DNA of 64,000 bases from Promethearchaeota archaeon (GTDB taxonomy: Archaea; Asgardarchaeota; Lokiarchaeia; Sigyniarchaeales; SOKP01). Under the pieces are notes generated by a model that was not told where the DNA came from, did not search any database, and saw nothing but the letters and a program-made list of their open reading frames with translations. The stretch covers positions 51,179-115,178 of the forward strand of contig JAGXOA010000204.1 of NCBI GenBank assembly GCA_019894715.1, in the 5' to 3' direction. This document shows positions 1,844 through 51,238 of the stretch, one piece after another. The number at the start of each line of letters is the position of its first letter. Position 1 is the first letter of the stretch. The position numbers were made by a program, and so were the translations under genes.

Positions 1844-2082
1844 ATCACTAGTTTGATCATTTTCAATCACTTTTTTTATAATATTATTATATTATCTACC
1901 CAAAAAAAAATTTCATAAATAATTTTTTTTTTAAAGAAAGATATTGTAAAAATACTTGTTCTTCTAAAGATATCATATTTAGATCATGACATTTTAATTA
2001 ATAATCTTAATATAGTTTTCCAGATAATTATAATAAATATATTTCTTTTATTGAGAAATTAATCATCATAAAAAATCTATAT

Positions 2083-3393
2083 GTGATTTTTATGGGTTTT
2101 CGAGAACATATAAAAAAATTAGACGAAGAAGGAATTCTTCGAAAAGTTGATATTGAAGTATCTAAATATTTGGAAATTTCTGGAATTTTAAAAGAAGTTG
2201 AACCTACTCCAGTAGTTTTTAATAAAATAACTGATAATAATTTTCGATTAATTGGTAATTTATTCTGTACAAAACAATCAATTGCATCTTACCTTGGAGT
2301 AACTCCCGCAGACTTAATACTAATGCTAACAAAAGCTATTGATAATCATTCTGAGCCCGAAACAATAAATAATGCACCATGTCAGGAAATTATTGAGACA
2401 AATGTAGATTTGGACAAACTACCTATTTTAATTCATTGTGAAAAAGATGGAGGTCCATATATTAGTTCTGGTGTTGTTGTCACCCGAGATCCTGAGTATG
2501 GACAAAATTTAGACTTTCATCGAGCAATGCAATTTTCAAAAAATCAATTTGCAACTAGAGTCGTAAGAGGACGTCATTTTCAAAAATTTTTAGAAAGAAA
2601 TGGAGAATTAGATGTAGCATTTTGTATTGGTAATACACCTAATGTTCTTATTGCTGCAGCAACATCTGTTGATATTGGTGTTGATGAACTAAGAATTGCA
2701 AATGCTCTAGAACCAATCCAAATTACTAAGGCTAAAACAGTTGATCTATTGGTTCCTGCTGACAGTGAATTTATTTTAGAAGGTCGTGTGTATTTAGAAG
2801 AAAAACATGCAGAAGGTCCTTTTGTTGATTTAACAGAGACATATGATATGATAAGAGAAGAACCTGTATTTGAAGTAAAAGCAATAACATATAAAAAGGA
2901 CGCTATATGGCAGGCTCTTCTTCCAGGAGCTCTTGAACATAAAATCCTAATGGGTATGCCAAGAGAACCTACTATATTCAGAAAAGTAAATGAAAAAGGA
3001 GTAAATTGTTTAGATGTAAATGTAAATCCCGGAGGGTGTTCATGGCTTCATGCAATAGTTCAGATAAATAAAAAATCTGATAATGATGGTAAATTGGCAA
3101 TTGAAGGTGCTTTTGAGGGTCATAGAAGCTGTAAACATGTTTACATTGTAGATAAAGATATAGATATCTATGATCCATTATCAGTAGAATGGGCCATGGC
3201 AACCCGATTTCAAGGCGATGTCGATATGATAGTCAAAGATAAAGAACCAGGTAGTAGTTTGGATCCAAGCGCAGAACCAGGAACAAAATTAACAACAAAA
3301 ATAGGATTTGATTTAACTGCTCCATTAGTTATCAAAGGTAAAAATTTTGGAAAAGCAGAATTTCCCAAAGTTGATATAAATAAATATTTTTAA
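2083..3393 (+). CDS. UbiD-family (prFMN-dependent) decarboxylase; candidate anhydromevalonate-phosphate decarboxylase
   Basis: 436 aa with UbiD-like sequence throughout (FREHIKKLDEEGILRKV..., GGPYISSGVVVTRDPEYGQNLDFHR, LRIANALEP, EGPFVDLTETYD). It directly precedes the aconitase-X pair and lies near UbiX and IPK. The true start is probably ATG 2092 (MGFREH...). Confidence 0.8.
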   Translation: MIFMGFREHIKKLDEEGILRKVDIEVSKYLEISGILKEVEPTPVVFNKITDNNFRLIGNLFCTKQSIASYLGVTPADLILMLTKAIDNHSEPETINNAPCQEIIETNVDLDKLPILIHCEKDGGPYISSGVVVTRDPEYGQNLDFHRAMQFSKNQFATRVVRGRHFQKFLERNGELDVAFCIGNTPNVLIAAATSVDIGVDELRIANALEPIQITKAKTVDLLVPADSEFILEGRVYLEEKHAEGPFVDLTETYDMIREEPVFEVKAITYKKDAIWQALLPGALEHKILMGMPREPTIFRKVNEKGVNCLDVNVNPGGCSWLHAIVQINKKSDNDGKLAIEGAFEGHRSCKHVYIVDKDIDIYDPLSVEWAMATRFQGDVDMIVKDKEPGSSLDPSAEPGTKLTTKIGFDLTAPLVIKGKNFGKAEFPKVDINKYF

Positions 3394-3410
3394 TCATTTA
3401 AGGTGATTTT

Positions 3411-4604
3411 ATGAAATTAACATTAGAAGAAAAAGATATGTTAGAAGGTAAGTATGGAAAGGCAACACAAAAATCAATGGAAATTTTAACCACTTTAGGT
3501 GATATATATGAAGCAGAAAAGATGATTGATATAAAAAGTGTACAAATATCTGGAGTTTCATATGCTAATCTTGGTGAAGCAGGATTAGATTTTTTAAGTA
3601 AAATGGCAATTGACGGAAAAGCTAGAATACTAACTACTTTAAATCCTGCTGGAATGGATCGAGATAACTGGCAAGCTTTAGGAATAGATGAAGAATTTGC
3701 AAAGAATCAAAATAGAGTTATTGACGCTTTCGCTAAAATGGAAGTTATTACAACTTGTACTTGTACGCCATATTTAATTGGTAATCTTCCACATTATGGC
3801 CAACATGTAGCATGGGCAGAGAGTAGTGCTGTATGTTTTTGTAATTCTGTGATTGGAGCGTATACAAACCGAGAAGGAGGACCTAGTGCTTTAGCATCCT
3901 CATTAACAGGAAAAACACCAAAATATGGATATCATTTAGAAGAAAATAGACATGGAGAAGTTTTATTTGAAATTAAGACATTAATTCAAGGAACAGATAA
4001 ATTTGGAGTCCTTGGTAAAGTAATTGGAGATAAATTAGGAGAATTAAAAAAGAAAATTCCCTATATTACAGGTATTCCTATCGCTAGTGTTGAAGAATTA
4101 AAATCATTTTGTGCTTCGGTGGCAACCTATGGGGGAACAGCTCTATTTCATATGGAAGGTATAACACCAGAAGCTTTAAAATATCCTAAACCTAAGAATA
4201 TTAAAATTGAAATTAATGAACAAGATATTAAAAAAGGGTTAGCAGAACTCATTGACGAAGATATTGAAGTAGATTTTGTTAGTATTGGATGCCCTCATGC
4301 CTCTATTGATGAAATAGCTCAAGTTGCAAAATTATTAAAAGGAAAAACTGTTAATAAAGAATTTTGGATAACAACTGGAAGGCCAACTAAAAAGATTGCT
4401 GATGAAGCAGGTTATACAAAGATAATAGAAAACGCAGGAGCAAAATTTGCCGCAGACACATGTTGTGTCGTTGCGCCTATAAAAGGAAGATTTAAAGGAA
4501 TTGTTGTAGATTCAGCAAAAGCTTGTTATTATGGTCGAGCCAAAAATAAATTTAAAGTTAAAATCGCTAATATTGAAGAATGTGTAAAGGAGGCGACACA
4601 ATAA
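3411..4604 (+). CDS. Aconitase X catalytic subunit (DUF521); candidate phosphomevalonate dehydratase large subunit
   Basis: 397 aa. MLEGKYGKATQKSMEILTTLGDIY..., VQISGVSY, TTLNPAGMD and conserved Cys (CTCTPY, CPHAS, CCVV) are typical of AcnX type IIb large subunits. GGTGA lies 4 nt before the ATG. Confidence 0.8.
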   Translation: MKLTLEEKDMLEGKYGKATQKSMEILTTLGDIYEAEKMIDIKSVQISGVSYANLGEAGLDFLSKMAIDGKARILTTLNPAGMDRDNWQALGIDEEFAKNQNRVIDAFAKMEVITTCTCTPYLIGNLPHYGQHVAWAESSAVCFCNSVIGAYTNREGGPSALASSLTGKTPKYGYHLEENRHGEVLFEIKTLIQGTDKFGVLGKVIGDKLGELKKKIPYITGIPIASVEELKSFCASVATYGGTALFHMEGITPEALKYPKPKNIKIEINEQDIKKGLAELIDEDIEVDFVSIGCPHASIDEIAQVAKLLKGKTVNKEFWITTGRPTKKIADEAGYTKIIENAGAKFAADTCCVVAPIKGRFKGIVVDSAKACYYGRAKNKFKVKIANIEECVKEATQ

Positions 4605-4997
4605 ATGAAGTTAGAAGGGAGAAAAATATATAAGGGGACTGCTAGTGGTGAAGCCATTGTTACTTCCCAAGGAATATCTTTCTTTGGAGGTGTCGATTCT
4701 GAGACAGGTGTAGTTGTAGAGAAAGATCATGAACTAGAAGGACAATCAATTTCTGGAAAAGTTTTAATATTTACTACAGGAAAAGGATCTACAGTAGGAT
4801 CCTATACAATATATCAAATGAAAAAAGGAAATACCGCACCTATAGCAATTGTTAATGAAACTATTGATACTGTAATTGCGGTTGGTTGTATTATTAGTGA
4901 AATTCCATGTGTTGATAAGATAGACATAAGTAAAATTAAAACAGGTCAAATAGTTACTGTAGATGGAACAAATGGAATAATAGAAGTTGAAGAATAA
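4605..4997 (+). CDS. Aconitase X swivel-domain subunit (DUF126); candidate phosphomevalonate dehydratase small subunit
   Basis: 130 aa. GEAIVTSQGISFFGGVDSETGVV...GQSISGKVLIFTTGKGSTVGSYTIYQM is the DUF126 pattern. It starts one base after the stop of the large subunit, with AGGAGG upstream at 4588-4593. Confidence 0.75.
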   Translation: MKLEGRKIYKGTASGEAIVTSQGISFFGGVDSETGVVVEKDHELEGQSISGKVLIFTTGKGSTVGSYTIYQMKKGNTAPIAIVNETIDTVIAVGCIISEIPCVDKIDISKIKTGQIVTVDGTNGIIEVEE

Positions 4998-5221
4998 TAT
5001 CTTTTTATTTTTTATTTATTTATAGAAATTTCTAAAATCTAATGATTTATGATGTTAAATCTACTTTAACAAAATTACGTTTCTGATTATTTATAATTTT
5101 TCAACTAAGGAGGAGTAAGAATTAAAAAGAAATGAAAATTTATCTAATAATATAAATAAACATACTAAATATGTAAAAAACACCTAATTATAGTATAATA
5201 TATTCAAAAATAAGTGATATT

Positions 5222-6188
5222 ATGGGAAGTGGAAAAGGTTTTGGAAAGACTATACTTTTTGGCGAAATTAAATTCTAAATTCAGAAATTAACGCAATCAC
5301 TTTGTAGTTTATGGTCTTCCTGCGATAGCTTCTGCCTTAGGTACATATACTACTACAGAAGTTAAAATAACAGAAGGTGAAGGTTGGGAAGTTATTGACG
5401 ATAGACCAGCCACACCAGGATATAAAAAACAGAAATTTGATGAAGCTCAACAATCAATAAAAAATGTCTTATCATTCCTAAATATAGATATAGAAAATCA
5501 AAAATTAATTTTATCCTTTGCTGGAGATCTATATGCTGCAAGCGGAGTAGGTGCTTCAGCAGCTCAGTGTACTTCTTTAGCTAGAGCTTTAAATGATGAA
5601 TTTATTTTAAATTTTAATGATGAAAAGATAAATGAAGCCGCTTATGAAGGAGAAAAAGCTTATCATGGAACACCTTCTGGTATAGACAATACAGCATCAA
5701 CATATGGAGGATTAATTTGGTTTGAAAAAAACCTTAGTGGTGGAAAGAATAAAATTGATAGGCTTGAATCAAAAGAGAAAATGTTTTTAGTTATTGGTAA
5801 TACAGGCTTAACAGCATCCACTATAGAAGTTGTTGGAGATGTACGTAAATTAAAGGATGAAAATCCTAAAAAATTTGAAAAAATATTCAATACCTATAAG
5901 GATATTGCGTTTAAAGCCAAAAATGCATTAATCGAAAGTGACGTAAAAACAGTAGGAAATTTAATGAATAAGAATCATGAATTACTTCAAGAAATTACAG
6001 TTTCTGGAGATATTAATGATATTATTGTTAAAATTGCTCTAGACAATGGAGCCTTAGGAGCTAAAATGACTGGAACAGGTCGTGGAGGTCTAGTGATTGC
6101 TTTAGCTTCTGATAAAAGTATTCAAGAAAAAATCTTTAATGCAATCCAAGAAAAGGGATATATGGCTTGGAAAACTACTATAGGATAG
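5222..6188 (+). pseudogene. mvk: Mevalonate kinase (GHMP kinase) with the frame interrupted by a 31-nt insert at 5267-5297
   Basis: ATG 5222 gives MGSGKGFGKTILFGE, then a stop at 5276. From 5298 another frame gives HFVVYGLPAIASAL...ASGVGASAAQCTSLARAL...KMTGTGRGGLVIAL to the stop at 6188. The ORF track reports only the last 135 aa (5781-6188). As read it is disrupted; see findings for the splice-like alternative. Confidence 0.75.
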
Positions 6189-6277
6189 TATGTAAATTAA
6201 TTAAAAAATATTAATGTGTCAAATTATCAATTTTTCTTTTTTAATAGTGTATAGAGATTAATTAGAGGATTTTAGAG

Positions 6278-8188
6278 TTGAATGAGACTGAAAAAATAAT
6301 ATTATTAAAATTAGGTGGAAGTCTACTAACTGAGAAAAATAAACCTTTTTCATTGAGAAAAGATGTTATTAAAAATGCTGTAAATCAAATTGGTAGAAGT
6401 AATAAAAAACTAATTATAATACATGGAGGGGGATCTTTTGGTCATCCTCTCGCAAAAAAATACAGTATTTCTAAAGGTATAAATAATTCAATAGAGAACC
6501 AAATAATGGGACTTTCAGAAACACATGATGCAATGAATAAGCTAAATTCATATGTAATCAGTGAATTTTTAGATCAATTAATTCCTGCTATATCAATTCA
6601 AACCTCGAGTATTTTTTTAAAAAAATCTCATGAGTATCTAATTAAGACAGTAGATATAATTGAAACTTACCTTAAATTAGGTCTTATCCCCATTTTATAT
6701 GGAGATATAGTGGTAGAGAAATCAGGGAATTTCTCAATTTTATCCGGAGATCAAATAATTTTAGAATTGTGTAATAATTTAAATAAATTTAAAGTAGAAA
6801 AAGTCATTTTCACAACAGAAACAGATGGTATATATATTAATGAAAATGATAGCACAGATAACACAAAATTGGCTACTGAAATACACTATAAAGATTTAGA
6901 TAATATTAATTTAGCTAATCTTGGTCAAAAAATAGATGTAACTGGAGGAATGAAGGGAAAAATAGATTCAATTAAGAAAATCTGTGATTTAAACATTCCT
7001 GTGCAAATAATCAATGGATTAAAACCAAATTACATTTTAAAAGCATTAAAATCAGAAAAAATCAAAGGAACTTATATTGGTATTGATAATAATGATAGAA
7101 TAACAAGAATTAGCAGAAGAAAAATCGAACATCTCAAAATTCCGATCGATTATAATGTTCAAAATAAATCTAATTATTTTGATGATATTGAATTGATATA
7201 TCATGCTTTTCCACAGATCAATTTTGATGATGTCAATCTCTCAACTAATTTTTTTGGGAAAATTATTTCAGCGCCTATATGTATAGCAGCTATAACAGGA
7301 GGTCATCCAGTAGCATATGAAATAAACAAAATTTTAGCGGATGCTGCTGAAAATCAAAATATTATAATGAGTGTGGGAAGTCAAAGAGCGGGATTAGTAG
7401 ATCCTGAACTATCAAAATCCTTTAGTATCGTGAGAGAAATAGCCCCAGATATACCAATTATTGGAAATTTAGGAATTGGTCAATTGAGTAGATCTAATTT
7501 TAATCTTGATGATTTTATAGATTGTATAAACATGATAAAAGCAGACGTTATGGCCGTTCATTTTAATGCTTTACATGAATTATTTCAAGAAAAAGGAGAT
7601 AAAACATATAATAATCTACTTGAAAACTTTAAAGAAGTAAAAAATGCAATAAAAATTCCAATTATTGCAAAAGAAGTAGGATCTGGATTTAATCAAGAAG
7701 TTGCACAGACTTTAGAAAATATAGGATTTGATGGGTTTGATGTGGGTGGTGCGGGAGGTACAAGCTTTGCCGCTATAGAATCCCATCGAAATAATAATCT
7801 AAATTCTATGTATACACGGAATCCTGCAGAATTATTTAGGGATTGGGGCATACCTACACCCGTTAGTATAAGTTATGTAAGAAAGGTTAGTCAAAAACCC
7901 ATAATATCCACAGGAGGTCTAAGAAATGGTATTGATATTGCTAAATCTATTGCTTTGGGTGCGAATATTGGAGGATTTGCCTATAAATTCCTATTAACTG
8001 CTTGGAAAGATTATAAGAATAATTCTAAATCTAATTCAATAAAAGAAATAATAACCTTAAAAAATGAACTGCAATCATGTTTGTGGTTAATGAATGCTTC
8101 TAATTCCAAAGAAATATTTAAGAAAAAGGACAAACTTATTATTTTAGGGAATTTATATAATTGGTTTAATCAAAATAAAACATTATAA
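6278..8188 (+). CDS. Fusion protein: isopentenyl phosphate kinase (N-terminal) + type-2 FMN-dependent IPP isomerase (C-terminal)
   Basis: 636 aa. The N-terminal ~260 aa is an amino-acid-kinase fold (ILLKLGGSLLTEK, IIHGGGSFGH, DVTGGM), as in IPK. The C-terminal ~350 aa carries IDI2 motifs (SAPICIAAITGG, MSVGSQRA, AKEVGSGF, GGAGGTSFAAIE, TGGLRNGIDIAKSIALGA). Confidence 0.8.
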   Translation: MNETEKIILLKLGGSLLTEKNKPFSLRKDVIKNAVNQIGRSNKKLIIIHGGGSFGHPLAKKYSISKGINNSIENQIMGLSETHDAMNKLNSYVISEFLDQLIPAISIQTSSIFLKKSHEYLIKTVDIIETYLKLGLIPILYGDIVVEKSGNFSILSGDQIILELCNNLNKFKVEKVIFTTETDGIYINENDSTDNTKLATEIHYKDLDNINLANLGQKIDVTGGMKGKIDSIKKICDLNIPVQIINGLKPNYILKALKSEKIKGTYIGIDNNDRITRISRRKIEHLKIPIDYNVQNKSNYFDDIELIYHAFPQINFDDVNLSTNFFGKIISAPICIAAITGGHPVAYEINKILADAAENQNIIMSVGSQRAGLVDPELSKSFSIVREIAPDIPIIGNLGIGQLSRSNFNLDDFIDCINMIKADVMAVHFNALHELFQEKGDKTYNNLLENFKEVKNAIKIPIIAKEVGSGFNQEVAQTLENIGFDGFDVGGAGGTSFAAIESHRNNNLNSMYTRNPAELFRDWGIPTPVSISYVRKVSQKPIISTGGLRNGIDIAKSIALGANIGGFAYKFLLTAWKDYKNNSKSNSIKEIITLKNELQSCLWLMNASNSKEIFKKKDKLIILGNLYNWFNQNKTL

Positions 8189-8197
8189 AACCATCAA

Positions 8198-8761
8198 TTA
8201 TTCAATATTTCCCCATCTTTTTATATCAGAATCAATTTTAAGTAGATCTAAAATCCTACCAGCTATTTGCTTAGTAAGATCATCAACAGTCTTAGGTTTA
8301 ATATAATAAGAAGGAATAGGAGGTGCTATAATTACTCCTAATTTAGCTAGCTCAAGCATATTTTTTATATGAATAACATTAAACGGACTTTCTCTTACTG
8401 TTAGGATTAAGGTTCTTTTCTCTTTTATTGCGACATCAGCAGCTCTTGTAATTAAATTATCAGCATAACCATGAGCAATACCAGCTAAAGTTTTCATAGA
8501 ACAAGGAACAATAACCATTGCTTTAAATTTGTGTGATCCACTTGCAGGAGGTGCAGACATTTGATCATTTCTATAGCTCTTTGTTGCTAGACTTTTAAGA
8601 TCAGAAATTTTGTAATCTGTTTCTAAACCAATAACTTCCTCTGCTACTTTAGAAATAATTAATTCTGTTTCTATTTTTTTTTCTCTTAAGACTTTTAATA
8701 ATTCAATAGCTAATGAGATTCCTGTTGCACCAGTTATTGCGATAACAATCAAATTTCTCAA
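8198..8761 (-). CDS. ubiX: Flavin prenyltransferase UbiX (prFMN synthase)
   Basis: 187 aa. IAITGATGISLAIELLK, MVIVPCSMKTLAGIAHGYADNLITRAADVAIKEKR and LTVRESP are typical of UbiX/Pad1. TTG start. Confidence 0.9.
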   Translation of the reverse strand: MRNLIVIAITGATGISLAIELLKVLREKKIETELIISKVAEEVIGLETDYKISDLKSLATKSYRNDQMSAPPASGSHKFKAMVIVPCSMKTLAGIAHGYADNLITRAADVAIKEKRTLILTVRESPFNVIHIKNMLELAKLGVIIAPPIPSYYIKPKTVDDLTKQIAGRILDLLKIDSDIKRWGNIE

Positions 8762-9026
8762 AATAAAATTATTTTCTCTTATATATAAAATAAAGTTTAA
8801 TGATTATAATAAAACTTGTTCTAATTAAAAATTGAATTTATATTTTTATAAAGATAATAACGTTGAATTTATTTTCAATTAATAAGTGGTTATTAGACTT
8901 TTCTTATACTTTTATATGTGATAATATTTTATGAAATTATAGAAATAAGGTAAATAAAAAACATACGTCATTTTATAAAATAAATGTATTTTTAGAGCTT
9001 TAAAAAAAAAAAATTATAGGTTTAAA

Positions 9027-17432: not shown

Positions 17433-18365
17433 TTAGGACTTATTTGCAAAATTATTAATAAAATCTTCAAGAATATTATGAATAAGTTCATCCAGCTTAA
17501 TTTCATTAAAACTCTCAGAGAGAACTACAAGATAAGTTAGATTTGATCTAAGAAATTTTAATCTAGAAATTTTGACAATTCTTATTTTATCATTTGATTT
17601 GAATAAATGGCTCTCATTATATAAATATGAATCCAGTTTATTTTCTTCCCATAATCGATAAAAGATAACAAAAGAATCATAGATGAGATTTATTTTATTT
17701 TTTTGAGATTTTGACTGGGTAATGACTTTATTTTGGTCATCAATTACCAAACAAAGTACATTTGAATAATCTTTAATTTGTTTTTCTAAAATTTTTTTAA
17801 TTTTAGAGGTTTTCTCTGAAAAACTACTAAGAATTTCAGAGAAAGTGTTATGAATACTATAAATAAATTCTTGCTTGATACTTGTAAAATATATATCTGG
17901 TTTAATTTTTAGATTAATCAAATTTTGAATCTGATCTGTCAGTAAACTAAGATTTTCTTGAAGTAATTGGGGATTAAGATCAATTTTATTATAGATTAGA
18001 ATCAATTTGCTTTTACTATTTATTTTCATTATAATTTTATAAATATTTTCTATTTCTTCAATAATTTCTTGTGATATCTCTCGTATTGATTCATAATCAA
18101 ACATATAGATTACAATATTAGCTCTCTCAAAAGCTTTTATTTGTTTTTCCCCCTCCTTTAAGAAACTATTAATTTCCTGACCTGAAATATCAAAAATACT
18201 TAAATTAATATCTAACCAATTGTAATCAGTAGTTTCTATTCCACAAGTTGGTTCTAATGATTCTTTTAATAATAATTTTGGATTTGAATTCTCAAATATT
18301 ATTTTTTTTAGGCTTGTTTTTCCCACACCAGCTCTACCAATAAAAAGAATTTTATTTATTATGAT
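17433..18365 (-). CDS. Rag/Gtr1-like small GTPase with C-terminal roadblock-like domain; 5' end extended beyond the ORF-track start
   Basis: G1 GRAGVGKT (its G-R-A-G codons at 18327-18338 lie upstream of the GTG the track used), G3 FDISGQ, G4 YNKIDL. Overall it resembles RagA/Gtr1 (KILFIGRAGVGKTSLKKIIF..., VIYMFD). The C-terminal ~130 aa has an alpha-beta-beta-alpha-beta-beta-alpha pattern. The frame is closed by TGA at 18369-18371, leaving only ATC/ATA/ATT as possible starts. Confidence 0.7.
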   Translation of the reverse strand: MIINKILFIGRAGVGKTSLKKIIFENSNPKLLLKESLEPTCGIETTDYNWLDINLSIFDISGQEINSFLKEGEKQIKAFERANIVIYMFDYESIREISQEIIEEIENIYKIIMKINSKSKLILIYNKIDLNPQLLQENLSLLTDQIQNLINLKIKPDIYFTSIKQEFIYSIHNTFSEILSSFSEKTSKIKKILEKQIKDYSNVLCLVIDDQNKVITQSKSQKNKINLIYDSFVIFYRLWEENKLDSYLYNESHLFKSNDKIRIVKISRLKFLRSNLTYLVVLSESFNEIKLDELIHNILEDFINNFANKS

Positions 18366-18590
18366 TGATCAACAAAAATAAGGTTTTTTATAAGAAAACG
18401 TTCTTTTTAGTAAAATAAATAAGTATACTGATTTATAAAGTTCCTTGAATCATAAAGTTTAAAATAAATATTATGTTTGAACCCAATATTAAATAAATTT
18501 TTAAAATAAATCGTTTATTAGGAAATTTATTTGATTTGTCAATGTCATTGTAAAAATTTAAGCCAAGATAGAAGAATTAACTAATCATAA

Positions 18591-34663: not shown

Positions 34664-34915
34664 TTCAATATTAATAAAATTATACACGGGGTTATTATTA
34701 TATCATCACAAATAGAAAAACAAGATATTGAATGGGCTAAGGATTGGAATTCCATAGTTAAAATATTTGATTTAATTGAACATTTAAAAGAGGAATTAAG
34801 AAAATTAGACGTTATTTATCTGAGAAAGGTACAACAGAAAATCTTAATATTAAATTTAGAAAAATATACTTGGTCCCTACAAAATTATATTATAGATAAA
34901 TACACAAAAGAATAA
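34664..34915 (+). CDS. Candidate 83-codon ORF without a canonical start codon
   Basis: Frame open from 34664 to TAA 34913-34915. It reads ...SSQIEKQDIEWAKDWNSIVKIFDLIEHLKEELRKLDVIYLRKVQQKILILNLEKYTWSLQNYIIDKYTKE (helical, protein-like). It contains no in-frame ATG/GTG/TTG, so it is absent from the track. It sits in an otherwise empty 508-bp gap. Confidence 0.25.
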   Translation, partial: FNINKIIHGVIIISSQIEKQDIEWAKDWNSIVKIFDLIEHLKEELRKLDVIYLRKVQQKILILNLEKYTWSLQNYIIDKYTKE

Positions 34916-44014: not shown

Positions 44015-44935
44015 ATGATGGATAAAAATAATAGAAAAATAAAACATATTCGATTTTCAATCACCTCTCTATGTAATTGTAAATGTATATATTGTGATAA
44101 AGAGGGTTTTATTCCTAAAACTACTGAATTAACTGTAGATGAAATAATAAAATTATGTAAGATTTTAGCTCAAATTCTAAATGTTACTAGAATTAAATTT
44201 ACAGGAGGAGAACCTTTATGTCGAAAAGAGATTATTTCAATTATTAAGAATGTTTCAGACTTAAAACTTTATAAAGATATTTCTATGACAACTAATGGAT
44301 TACTTTTATACAATAAAGCAGAGGAATTATATAATGCAGGACTTAATAGAATTAATGTTTCCTTAGGAACATTAAATTCACAGAGATATAAGAAAATATA
44401 TAATACTGATTCCCTCAACACAGTTCTTAAAGGTCTTGAAAAATCGAAGGAAGTTGGATTAAATCCAATAAAAATAAACTATGTTATTTTAAAAAATCTA
44501 AATGATGATGAATTTTGGAATATGAGTGATTTTTGCTCCAAAAATGGATATATTTTACAATTAATAGAACTACATAAAGTATCAAAATCTGTTGGGGAAA
44601 ATAATAGTTTCTATCAAAAATATCACTATGATACTGGTCCTCTTATTAGAGAACTTGAGAAGAAAGCAGAGGAAATAATAATTCGAGGAAATATGCAGAA
44701 TAGGAAGACCTTTATTTTCTCTAATGGATCTATTATTGAAACAATTATACCTAATCATGAATCTTGTATGGGATGCACAAAATTAAGAGTAGGATGTGAC
44801 GGAAATTTATTTGGTTGTTTATTCCGCTCAGATCTTGGAAGAAATATTAAAGAAACATTGAAAGATCATCATTCTTTAGAAAAATATGAAGAAATTGTTA
44901 AACAAATAGTACAATCAAGAGAACCATTTTATTAA
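44015..44935 (+). CDS. moaA: GTP 3',8-cyclase MoaA (radical SAM)
   Basis: 306 aa. Radical-SAM cluster CNCKCIYC, then FTGGEPL, TTNG, and a C-terminal second cluster CMGCTKLRVGCDGNLFGCLF. Confidence 0.9.
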   Translation: MMDKNNRKIKHIRFSITSLCNCKCIYCDKEGFIPKTTELTVDEIIKLCKILAQILNVTRIKFTGGEPLCRKEIISIIKNVSDLKLYKDISMTTNGLLLYNKAEELYNAGLNRINVSLGTLNSQRYKKIYNTDSLNTVLKGLEKSKEVGLNPIKINYVILKNLNDDEFWNMSDFCSKNGYILQLIELHKVSKSVGENNSFYQKYHYDTGPLIRELEKKAEEIIIRGNMQNRKTFIFSNGSIIETIIPNHESCMGCTKLRVGCDGNLFGCLFRSDLGRNIKETLKDHHSLEKYEEIVKQIVQSREPFY

Positions 44936-44955
44936 AATTATATAGAAAAAAGTGA

Positions 44956-45237
44956 ATTATTATCGTAGAAGTATTATATTTTGCAGATTTTAAAGATATC
45001 TCAGGTAAAAGTAGAGAATTATTTTTATTAGAAAAAAAAAGTTTAAGAGAATTAATTGATCTTATAATAGGTAAATATCCAAAAATTAAAGATCTAATAT
45101 TAGAAAATAATGATAATAAGATTAAAAATACAATTTCAATAGCAATAAATGATAACATCACAAAAAGTATAGATCTAAATATATCTCTTAATAATGAAGA
45201 TAAGATAGCTTTTTTATTACCATTTTCAGGAGGTTAA
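44956..45237 (+). CDS. moaD: Molybdopterin synthase sulfur-carrier subunit MoaD (ThiS/MoaD fold); not in the ORF track
   Basis: 93-codon open frame between moaA and moaE. It is bounded upstream by TGA 44953-44955 and ends ...DKIAFLLPFSGG*. It reads IIIVEVLYFADFKDISGKSRELFLLEKKSLRELIDLIIGKYPKIKDL..., the MoaD pattern with a C-terminal Gly-Gly. It contains no ATG/GTG/TTG codon at all, so the start is likely ATT 44956/44959 or ATC 44962 (GTGA lies 6 nt upstream of the ATC). Confidence 0.8.
   Translation: MIIVEVLYFADFKDISGKSRELFLLEKKSLRELIDLIIGKYPKIKDLILENNDNKIKNTISIAINDNITKSIDLNISLNNEDKIAFLLPFSGG
45229..45234 (+). promoter_or_regulatory. Shine-Dalgarno site for moaE
   Basis: GGAGGT (the Gly-Gly codons of moaD) lies 7 nt upstream of the TTG 45242 start of moaE. 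Confidence 0.6.
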
Positions 45238-45241
45238 TTAA

Positions 45242-45691
45242 TTGAACGAGAAAATCACATTACAAATAGATTCAGGAATTTATTTGAAAGGAAAAATTAG
45301 ATTTGAAGAAATAATTAACTCAATAAAATCGAATCCTAAGATTGAAGAAGTAGGGTCAATTTTAACCTTTACAGGAATTGTAAGGAAATCTTCAGAAGAT
45401 GGAAGACTTGTTAATGGTCTGATTATTGATTCATATGAAGAACTTGCTAACAAAACGATTGGGAGAATATGTAGCGATATATTAAAAGAAGAAGGAATAA
45501 TTGATCTAAGAATAATACATTTGATTGGAGAATTCTCAATCTCAGAAGATTTGGTATATGTTGTAGTGGCTAGTGCTCATAGAAAAGAAGGATTTCAAGC
45601 GTTAAGTACTGCTGTAGAACGTTATAAAAAAGAATTATCTGTGTGGAAAAAAGAGTTATATCTTGATAGTGAACCAAAATGGATTCATTAA
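45242..45691 (+). CDS. moaE: Molybdopterin synthase catalytic subunit MoaE
   Basis: 149 aa. GSILTFTGIVR, LRIIHLIGEFSISEDLVYVVVASAHRKEGFQALSTAVERYKKELSVWKKE. Confidence 0.85.
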   Translation: MNEKITLQIDSGIYLKGKIRFEEIINSIKSNPKIEEVGSILTFTGIVRKSSEDGRLVNGLIIDSYEELANKTIGRICSDILKEEGIIDLRIIHLIGEFSISEDLVYVVVASAHRKEGFQALSTAVERYKKELSVWKKELYLDSEPKWIH

Positions 45692-49259: not shown

Positions 49260-50123
49260 ATGATTATAGATAAAGTAAAAAAGATAAAAGAACAATATAA
49301 TATCATTGGTAGAACTGATGAAATAAGGAAAATGATATTAGCTCGTTCAGTTGATAAAAATATACTTATTGAAGGAGAGGTTGGTGTTGGCAAAACAACA
49401 TTAGCAGAAGCCATTTCTCAATATTATGATTCAAATTTCTACCGTATTGATTGCTCGGAAGAGACATTGACTCATAATTTAATTGGACATTTTGATCCAC
49501 CTTTAGTAATTGCAAAAGGATATATAGAGGAATCTTATGTATATGGGGCATTAGCCACTGCTATGTCTAATGGAGGTTGTTTGTTTATAAATGAAATAAA
49601 TAGAATGCCAGAAAGTACTCAAAATTCTTTATTAACTGCTCTCGACGAAAAAATTCTTGATATACCAAAACTTAAGAAGATAAAAGCTAAAGATGGATTT
49701 TTTGTTATAGCTACACTTAATCCATCTGCTCATGTAGGTGTTAATGTTTTAGGAGAAGCTATTATGGATAGATTTATCTGGATTAAACTTGATTATCAAT
49801 CAAAAGAAGAAGAACAAGAGATCATTAGGAAAGAAGTAAACATTAAGAATATTCCAAAAGATAATATAGCTGAGATATCTCAGAAAATCATTGAGTCAAC
49901 AAGGAAAACAATGTCAATCAGAAGAGGAAGTTCTATCAGAGGAGGTATAGATTTAGCTGCTTTGATATCACAATATGAAAATAATCAAAGCACTCAAAAT
50001 TGGATAGAAGCAGCAATAATGGCATTATATAATAAAATCGAACTTGAGGATGGAAACACAAGAACTAAAAGAGAAATTATCTCAGATATTGTATTATCTG
50101 TATTAAACAAGTCAGATTTTTAG
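49260..50123 (+). CDS. AAA+ ATPase, MoxR/CbbQ/ChlI-like
   Basis: 287 aa. Walker A GEVGVGKTTLA, Walker B CLFINEINR, sensor ATLNP, and Arg finger region GEAIMDRF. Confidence 0.8.
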   Translation: MIIDKVKKIKEQYNIIGRTDEIRKMILARSVDKNILIEGEVGVGKTTLAEAISQYYDSNFYRIDCSEETLTHNLIGHFDPPLVIAKGYIEESYVYGALATAMSNGGCLFINEINRMPESTQNSLLTALDEKILDIPKLKKIKAKDGFFVIATLNPSAHVGVNVLGEAIMDRFIWIKLDYQSKEEEQEIIRKEVNIKNIPKDNIAEISQKIIESTRKTMSIRRGSSIRGGIDLAALISQYENNQSTQNWIEAAIMALYNKIELEDGNTRTKREIISDIVLSVLNKSDF

Positions 50124-50125
50124 TA

Positions 50126-51238
50126 ATCGATGATCTCTCTGAGGAAGAATATAAAGAGGGGGAGAGAAAGCGACTACATGTTAGAAATACAGACCTTCCC
50201 TCAGATAGAAATATTTTACGTTTAGAAATTATAAGAAAAAGAAAAAAAAGACCTAGTTATTATCAACATTTAGCTAATACTTTAGATTATAAACAAATAA
50301 AAGAACTGACTTATACTGCAATCGAGAATAAAAATTTAGAGGCCGTTAGAGGTTTATTGAAATCAAATGTTTTTGCAGCTACTGATGCTCTAAATTGCGA
50401 TGAGGGTGTACGATTCTTTTCTGAAAAAGCAAAAGAAACTCCCAGTTTTATGCCAGAAGTTTATTTTTTCATTAGACGCCCTATATCTAAAAAGTATAGA
50501 TATATTTTTAGAAGATTAGCTCGTCAAAGTATTTTAACTTCTTCTTTAAAAATTACCAGCAAAGGTATACGTGGATATAAAAGAAAAACATTGCCCTATT
50601 ATAAATTAGATATGGGAGAGTTTAACATAGATGAAACTATCCAACATAATCCGCTAAAAATATTAAACAAGACTTTAACATATAAAGATATATATGGAAT
50701 TAAAAGGAAGCGCCAAAAAAGAAACGTAATTTTAATCCTTGATACGAGTGGAAGTATGTTTGGTAAACTTTTATTAAATGCTGCTTTAACTACTTCTGTA
50801 TTAGCTCATAATTTAGAAAAAGAAAATTATTCTATTGTATTATTTAATTCAACAGCAATGGTATTAAAGGGTATAAAAGAAAAGAAGAAAATTACGACCA
50901 TTATTGATGATATTTTGGATTCTGAAGCTGTAGGATTTACAAATATTGCCATTGGTCTTGAAAAAGGTTTAAATGAATTAAACAAAATACAAAAAAGAGT
51001 TAAGAACGAATTTGCAATACTAATCACAGATGGTAATTATAATCGAGGAGAAAATCCGATTAATATTGCTAGAAATTTCCCAAAATTACATGTTATTGGA
51101 ATCCCCCCTGATAATGATGCAAATTCTGGATTAAATATATGTAAAGAAATAGCAAAAGCAGGAAAAGGTAAATTTTTTGCTGTTAAGGGTTATAGAGAAA
51201 TACCTCGAACTTTAATTAGTATATTATCTCAAAATTAA
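50126..51238 (+). CDS. von Willebrand factor A (VWA) domain protein; 5' end extended beyond the ORF-track start
   Basis: MIDAS LILDTSGSM, later ILITDG. The frame is open from 50069, but the first canonical start is TTG 50357. The 77 codons 50126-50356 (DDLSEEEYKEGERKRLHVRNTDLPSDRNILRLEIIRKRKK...) are stop-free and protein-like. The start is either ATC 50126 or the gene is fused to the AAA+ gene by a -1 shift on T5 (50117-50121). Confidence 0.7.
   Translation: MDDLSEEEYKEGERKRLHVRNTDLPSDRNILRLEIIRKRKKRPSYYQHLANTLDYKQIKELTYTAIENKNLEAVRGLLKSNVFAATDALNCDEGVRFFSEKAKETPSFMPEVYFFIRRPISKKYRYIFRRLARQSILTSSLKITSKGIRGYKRKTLPYYKLDMGEFNIDETIQHNPLKILNKTLTYKDIYGIKRKRQKRNVILILDTSGSMFGKLLLNAALTTSVLAHNLEKENYSIVLFNSTAMVLKGIKEKKKITTIIDDILDSEAVGFTNIAIGLEKGLNELNKIQKRVKNEFAILITDGNYNRGENPINIARNFPKLHVIGIPPDNDANSGLNICKEIAKAGKGKFFAVKGYREIPRTLISILSQN

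Follow-up and report, generated by a model that had tools for sequence, protein, structure and literature searches.

In Escherichia coli, infC and pcnB are AUU-initiated genes, and recurrent replacement of ATG by ATH start codons is known from animal mitochondria and from Mycoplasma and Spiroplasma, whose genomes are very AT-rich. Here, a candidate for near-cognate initiation in an archaeon is described. The gene is moaD, which belongs to an operon for the synthesis of the molybdenum cofactor (Moco), and it lies on a 64,000-nt stretch of contig JAGXOA010000204.1 from a low-GC Lokiarchaeon (hereafter the window, meaning the whole stretch analysed; GC ~26%, ~58 genes counted). The moaD frame is intact and contains no canonical start codon (ATG, GTG or TTG), and initiation of a functional moaD at a near-cognate AUU or AUC codon is, with reasonable confidence, the best explanation of its sequence.

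As a translation unit, the window moaD appears to resemble the AUU-started infC of bacteria and the AUH (AUA, AUU or AUC) starts of AT-rich organelle and mollicute genomes. The likeness to infC and pcnB consists of a conserved housekeeping gene in which AUU is the sole possible type of initiator, an element resembling a Shine-Dalgarno (SD) sequence, and a third-position mismatch that would be read by the initiator tRNA. In infC, however, the AUU is deeply conserved and serves the autoregulation of IF3, whereas the ATT of the window moaD is lineage-specific and no regulatory role is evident; archaea have no IF3, and aIF1 is its analogue. Mitochondria and mollicutes share with the window the recurrence of ATG-to-ATH starts in a very AT-rich genome, but their translation machinery is reduced and the mitochondrial tRNA-Met is modified, whereas the window comes from a free-living archaeon with initiation of the aIF1/aIF1A/aIF2 type.

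In eukaryotes, near-cognate initiation is controlled by the stringency of eIF1, eIF1A and eIF5, and AUH codons are among the weaker near-cognate starts. Eukaryotic ribosomes scan from the cap, whereas the Lokiarchaeal sites described here would depend on an SD-like element or on the coupling of a stop codon to the next start within an operon. The start-site selection factors of eukaryotes have archaeal homologues (PMC6412873, PMC7531240). In ribosome profiling of Haloferax, near-cognate sites made up ~30% of the putative alternative sites and were set aside (PMC7261190). A literature search for AUH starts returned no report on Asgard archaea and nothing specific for archaea generally.

The moaD reading frame and its product

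The moaD frame opens 20 nt after the moaA stop codon, directly behind an in-frame TGA (44953-44955), and consists of 93 sense codons (44956-45234) followed by TAA (45235-45237). Its translation is IIIVEVLYFADFKDISGKSRELF...DKIAFLLPFSGG*, which runs from IIIVEVLYFADFKDISGK at the N-terminus to AFLLPFSGG at the C-terminus. Every codon was read, and ATG, GTG, TTG and CTG were absent from all 93; the opening codons are ATT 44956, ATT 44959 and ATC 44962. Upstream of the TGA there are more in-frame stop codons and no start codon. Read-through of the TGA, or a moaD start further upstream, was ruled out by these further stops, by the missing upstream start and by the use of TGA as an ordinary terminator, which closes 6 of the 58 window genes. 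TGA, TAA and TAG all serve as stops in the window, and no change of the genetic code is implied at this locus.

ATG, GTG and TTG make up 2.95% of the window codons, and the probability of finding none of them in 92 codons is P = 0.063. The missing internal ATG, GTG and TTG codons are therefore unremarkable by themselves, and the anomaly of moaD is the start codon alone. At ~26% GC, ~9% of random triplets are stops, which by simple arithmetic gives a probability of ~2e-4 for an open frame of 93 codons, so the open moaD frame is no chance event.

The product matched the full profile (1-76) of Pfam ThiS (PF02597) with E = 3.4e-11 and 44 bits against a cut-off of 22.5, and profile positions 1-88 of TIGR01687 (moaD_arch) with 52.4 bits against a curated cut-off of 49.5. 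Its score for the SAMP1 equivalog NF041918 was 35.3 bits, below the cut-off of 60, and the protein is therefore filed as MoaD-type and not as SAMP1. All residues that are invariant in the family alignment are kept, including the terminal G92 and G93; the sequence ...LLPFSGG is directly followed by the stop codon, and this Gly-Gly is the thiocarboxylation site in the MoaD family. The AlphaFold (AF2) model, which is a predicted and not a solved structure, has a pLDDT (predicted local distance difference test) score of 86.3 and places strand beta-1 at residues 2-7. Since beta-1 begins at residue 2, the initiator must fall within the first three or four codons. In a Foldseek search of the PDB, the best match of the predicted model was SAMP1 of Haloferax volcanii (3po0; template modelling (TM) score 0.83/0.87), and the next matches were MoaD of Pyrococcus furiosus (1vjk), human MOCS2A (5mpo) and MoaD 1fm0_D. 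Solved MoaD and SAMP1 chains are matched by the moaD family profile, and given the high similarity of the predicted structure to SAMP1, the product may have a role as protein modifier.

The frame 44956-45237 is a genuine, intact and full-length archaeal MoaD in the expected operon slot, with a product of 91-93 aa according to which AUH codon initiates. Described archaeal MoaD and SAMP1 proteins (1vjk, 3po0, TIGR01687) agree with it in the length of ~90 aa, in the beta-grasp fold (predicted here) and in the Gly-Gly end; the position directly upstream of moaE and the score above the TIGR01687 cut-off are likewise those of an archaeal moaD. The difference lies in the start, since every relative examined begins with ATG or TTG and the window moaD does not. 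The gene order moaC-moaA-moaD-moaE-moeA-moaB is found both in the window and in relatives, and the use of the Gly-Gly codons as the SD sequence of moaE (Table 1) is also present in relatives. The operon is complete and is sited downstream of an ABC-type transporter (transporter permease and an ATPase with a TOBE domain), both genes of which are intact.

As a protein, the moaD product is an ordinary archaeal MoaD that is already in GenBank. The record MBY9007300.1 (MoaD/ThiS family protein, Candidatus Lokiarchaeota archaeon) has 93 aa beginning MIIVEV, and its first residue, Met in place of Ile, is the sole difference from the window translation. The Met stands at ATT 44956, indicating that the NCBI pipeline took this codon as the start. 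In the ENA annotation of a 121,033-bp contig carrying the same locus, moaD is missing and an antisense ORF is called there, for which no Pfam match was obtained.

The original prediction, made from the letters of the window, had described a MoaD frame directly behind TGA 44953-44955 without ATG, GTG or TTG, with a C-terminal Gly-Gly and in the slot between moaA and moaE. Codon-by-codon reading bears out the missing start codons, the Gly-Gly end and the slot, and the ThiS and TIGR01687 matches and the predicted beta-grasp model agree with a MoaD. The antisense ORF, which had been called spurious, indeed lacks a Pfam match, although ENA reports it instead of moaD. The description of moaD as hidden is correct for ORF finders that rely on ATG, GTG or TTG, but does not hold overall, since NCBI lists MBY9007300.1.

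Start codon positions in related moa genes

The moaD start was compared with that of 37 related loci, of which L001 comes from a genome (MoaA identity 69%) and the other 36 come from metagenomes (MoaD identity 42-55%). A canonical start was present in all 37, located 3-4 codons ahead of the conserved V/I-L-Y-F: at -4 codons there are 28 ATG and 7 TTG, and at -3 codons 2 TTG. The usual context in these relatives is ATA/ATT ATG AAA GTN GAA, and the window reads ATT ATT ATC GTA GAA, with similar flanking codons. ATT 44959 is at -4 and is therefore the positional homologue of the ATG or TTG start in 35 of the 37 loci, and a third-position change accounts for the ATT. In 15 of the 37 relatives, the gene's own ATG is preceded at a distance of two codons by another ATG, GTG or TTG in the same frame, as in GTG ATA ATG AAA.

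AUH codons at start positions are also found in other moa genes. The 39 loci compared (L001-L039) include one moaE with ATA (L013) and two moeA with ATT (L011 and L014) exactly in place of the ATG of the other loci, and each of these three codons is located 6-9 nt after GGAGG or GAGGAG. Together with the window moaD, this amounts to 4 of ~151 moa gene instances (~2.6%), all of them ATG-to-ATH at the homologous codon.

Reproducibility of the sequence at the moaD start

The moaD start was compared across three assemblies made with different assemblers (the window, MEGAHIT and Logan). It is reached by two further contigs, one from MEGAHIT (121,033 bp) and one from the Logan assembly of SRR14373431, and both match the window exactly (...GAAAAAAGTGAATTATTATCG...); an identical MoaE protein is encoded on 4 contigs from different samples or assemblers. 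Two alleles are conceivable here: GTGAATTATTATC, which would fit a real ATT/ATC start, and GTGATTATT, which has one A fewer and would restore a GTG. The site of the suspected extra A is only AA; inside the intact ORFs of the window there are 103 A/T runs of at least 7 nt, including a run of nine A within moaD itself. On the sibling ENA contig k141_903090 (locus L042), the first 69 nt (1-69) are untrimmed Illumina Nextera adapter in the public assembly, which identifies the data as Illumina data.

Other genes without a canonical start codon

All stop-to-stop frames of the window were scanned, and family and homology searches were then performed on the start-less candidates. Four of the ~58 window genes (~7%) proved to lack a canonical start, namely moaD and the genes for a Rag-like GTPase, a VWA protein and a protein of 83 codons (start sites in Table 1).

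The Rag-like GTPase gene (17433-18368, minus strand) matches Gtr1_RagA from residue 6 onward, and its first canonical codon is a GTG inside the P-loop. The public protein (297 aa) begins at this GTG, with most of the P-loop lost. A relative with 73% identity and a normal start reads TTGATCA GTT ATA ATG AAT AAA, and the window reads TTGATCA ATC ATA ATA AAT AAA. The same arrangement, in which ATA precedes AAT AAA closely behind an in-frame stop and canonical codons are missing, was also found in GCA_016926735.1, in GCA_964525635.1 and in a tandem paralogue. For GCA_016926735.1 NCBI calls the ATA of the Rag gene as its start, so that an AUH start has been accepted by this pipeline in a relative as well. 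Since the ATA is common to three species at 55-67% protein identity, AUA has been kept at the Rag start position. A TGATC motif is conserved upstream of the start of the Rag-like GTPase (loci L044, L045, L047 and L057).

The VWA protein gene (50126-51238, plus strand) is located downstream of a MoxR AAA+ gene, and its first canonical codon is TTG 50357. Homologues of 366-367 aa align from about codon 24 of the window frame, the 70 residues ahead of TTG 50357 show good conservation, and ~75 residues are missing from the public annotation. The comparison loci (L050 and L052-L055) and the window were examined for the junction of the two genes: the MoxR stop followed by TAATC, with the ATC opening a conserved I-D-D-F/L-S-E and no canonical start, was present in the window, in two other metagenome-assembled genomes and in Lokiarchaeum GC14_75. 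In these four species the ATC overlaps or adjoins the MoxR stop. Two loci with a TTG four codons downstream keep TAATCGATGAY, and third-position variation is seen in the VWA frame. In the VWA gene, an ATG in another frame (TCGATGAT) is conserved 4 nt further downstream; it might act as an SD-like GATGAT ahead of the TTG from which other species start. A fusion of MoxR and VWA through a -1 shift at GAT TTT would be another conceivable arrangement.

The 83-codon protein has 27 homologues, the best with 70% identity, and the motif DxEWAxDW...LILNLxKYAWSLQN; it matches no Pfam family. In the alignment with the closest homologue, the Met of the latter falls on the first ATT of ATT ATT ATA (34694-34702), just after GGGG (34688-34691), and the nearby ATG 34656 belongs to another frame.

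Three consecutive Ile codons are a frequent opening of the start-less genes, as observed in the window at 44956-44964, 18365-18357 and 34694-34702 and in loci L044 and L045; the examples are ATT ATT ATC, ATC ATA ATA, ATT ATT ATA, ATA ATA ATA and ATA ATT ATA. Ile accounts for 12.5% of residues, and an Ile triple is expected at ~0.2% of positions. These openings are in part explained by the ATA/ATT-ATG start context, which is common in relatives; tandem AUH codons might also be favoured by selection as a means of strengthening weak initiation.

The original prediction had linked moaD with the Rag-like GTPase and VWA cases. This pattern is real and conserved across species, and it includes more genes than had been listed. 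On balance, the comparative evidence from these few genes leans slightly towards the view that AUA, AUU and AUC are in routine use as primary starts in low-GC Lokiarchaeia (Promethearchaeota). Some of these AUH starts appear to have been conserved between species for a long time, such as the ATA of the Rag-like GTPase and the TAATC stop-start coupling of MoxR and VWA, and judging from their surroundings they would often stand in tandem behind an SD-like element.

Candidate initiation codons and ribosome positioning

The SD-like GTGA at 44952-44955 lies 0, 3 and 6 nt ahead of ATT 44956, ATT 44959 and ATC 44962, respectively, and ATC 44962 has the most typical SD spacing of the three. This spacing would favour ATT 44959 or ATC 44962 over the ATT 44956 chosen in GenBank: the latter adjoins the GTGA and would be the least likely start, and one of the other two is likely to be used. 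The chance probability of a GTGA within 10 nt is P = 0.016. GGAGG, GAGGT or (G)GTGA is located 4-10 nt upstream of ~10 of the 53 window genes with a canonical start, mostly operon-internal ones, and the start context of the mevalonate kinase gene is GTGAT-ATT-ATG. In Lokiarchaea, SD sequences are reported to be rare (PMC7531240). A scan of the window for tRNA genes and Rfam families gave tRNA-Leu only, with no initiator tRNA and no rRNA 3' end. We infer that moaD translation starts at an AUH codon, that the GTGA contributes to its positioning and that the choice falls among the three AUH codons. Initiation at ATT, ATT or ATC behind a GTGA located 6 nt before the ATC, as first proposed, is also the reading that is best supported now, with ATT 44959 and ATC 44962 as the likeliest codons.

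In the mechanism proposed here, the ancestral ATG start of moaD would have become ATT by a third-position substitution. Translation of the gene would persist from its place inside the moaC-moaA-moaD-moaE-moeA-moaB operon, as an internal cistron, where the initiator tRNA would pair with the near-cognate AUU (44959) or AUC (44962), placed by the SD-like GTGA. The predicted product of 91-92 residues would carry Met first, run straight into beta-1 and act as the small sulfur-carrier subunit of molybdopterin synthase. As a member of the MoaD family, it would be adenylated and thiocarboxylated by an E1 of the MoeB/UbaA type and pass sulfur to cPMP within MoaE. In this low-GC Lokiarchaeial lineage, a few percent of the genes would in this way begin with AUA, AUU or AUC.

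Proposed near-cognate initiation and alternative explanations

Several points weigh against near-cognate initiation of moaD. In E. coli, initiation at AUU or AUC reaches ~0.1-3% of that at AUG, and MoaD is required 1:1 with MoaE. The comparison with relatives, which had been suggested together with the original prediction, gave canonical starts in 37 of 37 and homology of ATT 44959 to the start in 35 of them, so that a start without a canonical codon is found in only 1 of 38 lineages and is not evolutionarily conserved for moaD. A same-genus relative, which could attest to the persistence of the moaD start under selection, was not found either in the genome scan (MoaA up to 69% identity) or in the metagenome scan (MoaD up to 55% identity). 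It is also an uncomfortable coincidence that GTG 44952-44954 is exactly one base out of frame and could be converted into a start by an indel. In reviews of archaeal initiation, no start codons other than AUG, GUG and UUG are listed (PMC7531240).

The main rival reading is an uncompensated loss of the start, in which moaD would be recently silenced or barely expressed (an incipient pseudogene) and Moco synthesis would proceed via another MoaD/SAMP-type protein or be in the course of being lost. The isolated position among 38 lineages, the missing close relative and the weakness of AUH starts in model systems all fit such a loss, as does the predicted fold, which is as close to SAMP1 as to MoaD, since archaea often have several such proteins. 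However, the 93-codon frame is still uninterrupted, while a random frame in this genome closes within ~11 codons; every invariant residue is retained, and the whole moa operon with its upstream ABC-type transporter is intact. The SD-like GTGA is retained as well, and other AUH-start genes are conserved across species, indicating that the lineage evidently tolerates such starts; a silenced moaD is therefore considered rather unlikely. An assembly or sequencing artefact, raised in the original prediction as an extra A hiding a GTG, is disfavoured more strongly. In this case the true sequence would be GTGATTATT, and GTG ATT ATT ATC would be an ordinary GTG start. Apart from its offset of exactly one base, the restored GTG would fall where 15 of the 37 relatives carry an in-frame ATG, GTG or TTG. 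The site is, however, identical in three assemblies by different assemblers and comes from an Illumina Nextera library, and the suspect position is merely AA in a window where 103 long homopolymers are intact within ORFs. The GTG would also be without an SD sequence (upstream TATAGAAAAAA), the conserved start of the relatives is not at the position of the GTG, and the universally conserved -4 ATG would remain ATT even after correction. With three further window genes lacking a canonical start that no single-base fix rescues, an artefact is regarded as very improbable.

A further mechanism, in which ribosomes would start at GTG 44952 and enter the moaD frame by a programmed +1 shift, and likewise start at TTG or ATG followed by A for the Rag gene, would make use of the NTG-A that directly precedes the frame in moaD (GTGA), in the window Rag gene (TTGA) and in L045a (ATGA). 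Such an NTGA arises automatically wherever the upstream in-frame stop is TGA, and no slippery or stimulatory element is evident. A shift after TTG hits TAA in L044 and L045b, and the conserved out-of-frame ATG of the VWA gene would need a shift in the opposite direction, so that this mechanism is hardly credible. Near-cognate initiation at AUU or AUC therefore remains the preferred interpretation of moaD.

Features of the locus

The coordinates of the moaD locus and of the other start sites are shown in Table 1.

Table 1. Features of the moaD locus and start sites of the other start-less genes, in window coordinates.
Feature	Position	Strand	Remark
Rag-like GTPase start TTGATCA ATC ATA ATA (AAT AAA...)	18357..18373	-	ATA 18359-18357 homologous to ATG of the closest canonical relative
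83-codon gene start GGGG TT ATT ATT ATA	34688..34702	+	conserved gene 34664-34915 without ATG, GTG or TTG
moaA (radical-SAM GTP 3',8-cyclase)	44015..44935	+	Radical_SAM and Mob_synth_C matches; stop TAA 44933-44935
Spurious antisense ORF, 86-87 aa	44898..45161	-	reported in place of moaD by callers bound to canonical start codons
SD-like GTGA	44952..44955	+	final 3 bases are the in-frame TGA closing the moaD frame upstream; GTG 1 nt out of frame
Candidate initiators ATT ATT ATC	44956..44964	+	near-cognate codons in direct succession
moaD coding frame, 93 codons and TAA	44956..45237	+	beta-grasp sulfur carrier with C-terminal Gly-Gly
GGAGGT	45229..45234	+	Gly-Gly codons of moaD forming the moaE SD sequence, 7 nt ahead of TTG 45242
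moaE (molybdopterin synthase catalytic subunit)	45242..45691	+	TTG start; family match
VWA start: MoxR stop TAG, then TAATC	50121..50128	+	ATC 50126-50128 opens the conserved VWA N-terminus

Split mevalonate kinase gene and its cluster

The frame 5292-6188 (298 codons, 163 of them start-less) was considered as another start-less gene and rejected, because it is the body of a split mevalonate kinase gene with a normal ATG at 5222. In this gene (5222-6188, plus strand), the first 15 codons (ATG 5222...GGC GAA) are in another frame than the body. Between ...GKTILFGE and HFVVYGLPAIA... there is a 31-nt insert (5267-5297) which contains a stop codon and breaks the conserved G-E-H-x-V-V-Y-G motif. 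When the insert was conceptually removed, the TIGR00549 score increased from 211.8 to 230.8 bits and the alignment was continuous from profile position 3. The 8-nt sequence GAAATTAA is directly repeated at 5264-5271 and 5284-5291, and the insert is also present in the independent MEGAHIT contig. When a bulge-helix-bulge intron or a hop was fitted to the insert, no clean bulge-helix-bulge was obtained and the hairpin was not significant. Candidate explanations of the insert include an mRNA intron and a disabling insertion, among others.

The surrounding cluster (2011-8803) encodes an archaeal-type mevalonate pathway and is otherwise intact. It includes a UbiD-family decarboxylase, the large and small subunits of AcnX and the mevalonate kinase, together with a fusion of AA_kinase and FMN_dh (636 aa); a flavoprotein of the UbiX type is encoded on the opposite strand.

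Implications

ORF finders limited to ATG, GTG and TTG drop moaD, and as a result Moco synthesis would be scored as incomplete in metabolic reconstruction; the same blind spot has left the public records of the Rag-like GTPase and the VWA protein truncated. If moaD were an isolated mutation only, the case would be a minor annotation curiosity. The AUH codons found at several start positions provide concrete loci at which the start-codon stringency of aIF1, aIF1A and aIF2 could be studied in cultured Lokiarchaeia. If AUH starts are indeed routine, a few percent of the proteins of Asgard archaea would be systematically missing or truncated in current gene calls, and the archaeal lineage closest to eukaryotes would have a relaxed stringency of start-codon selection.

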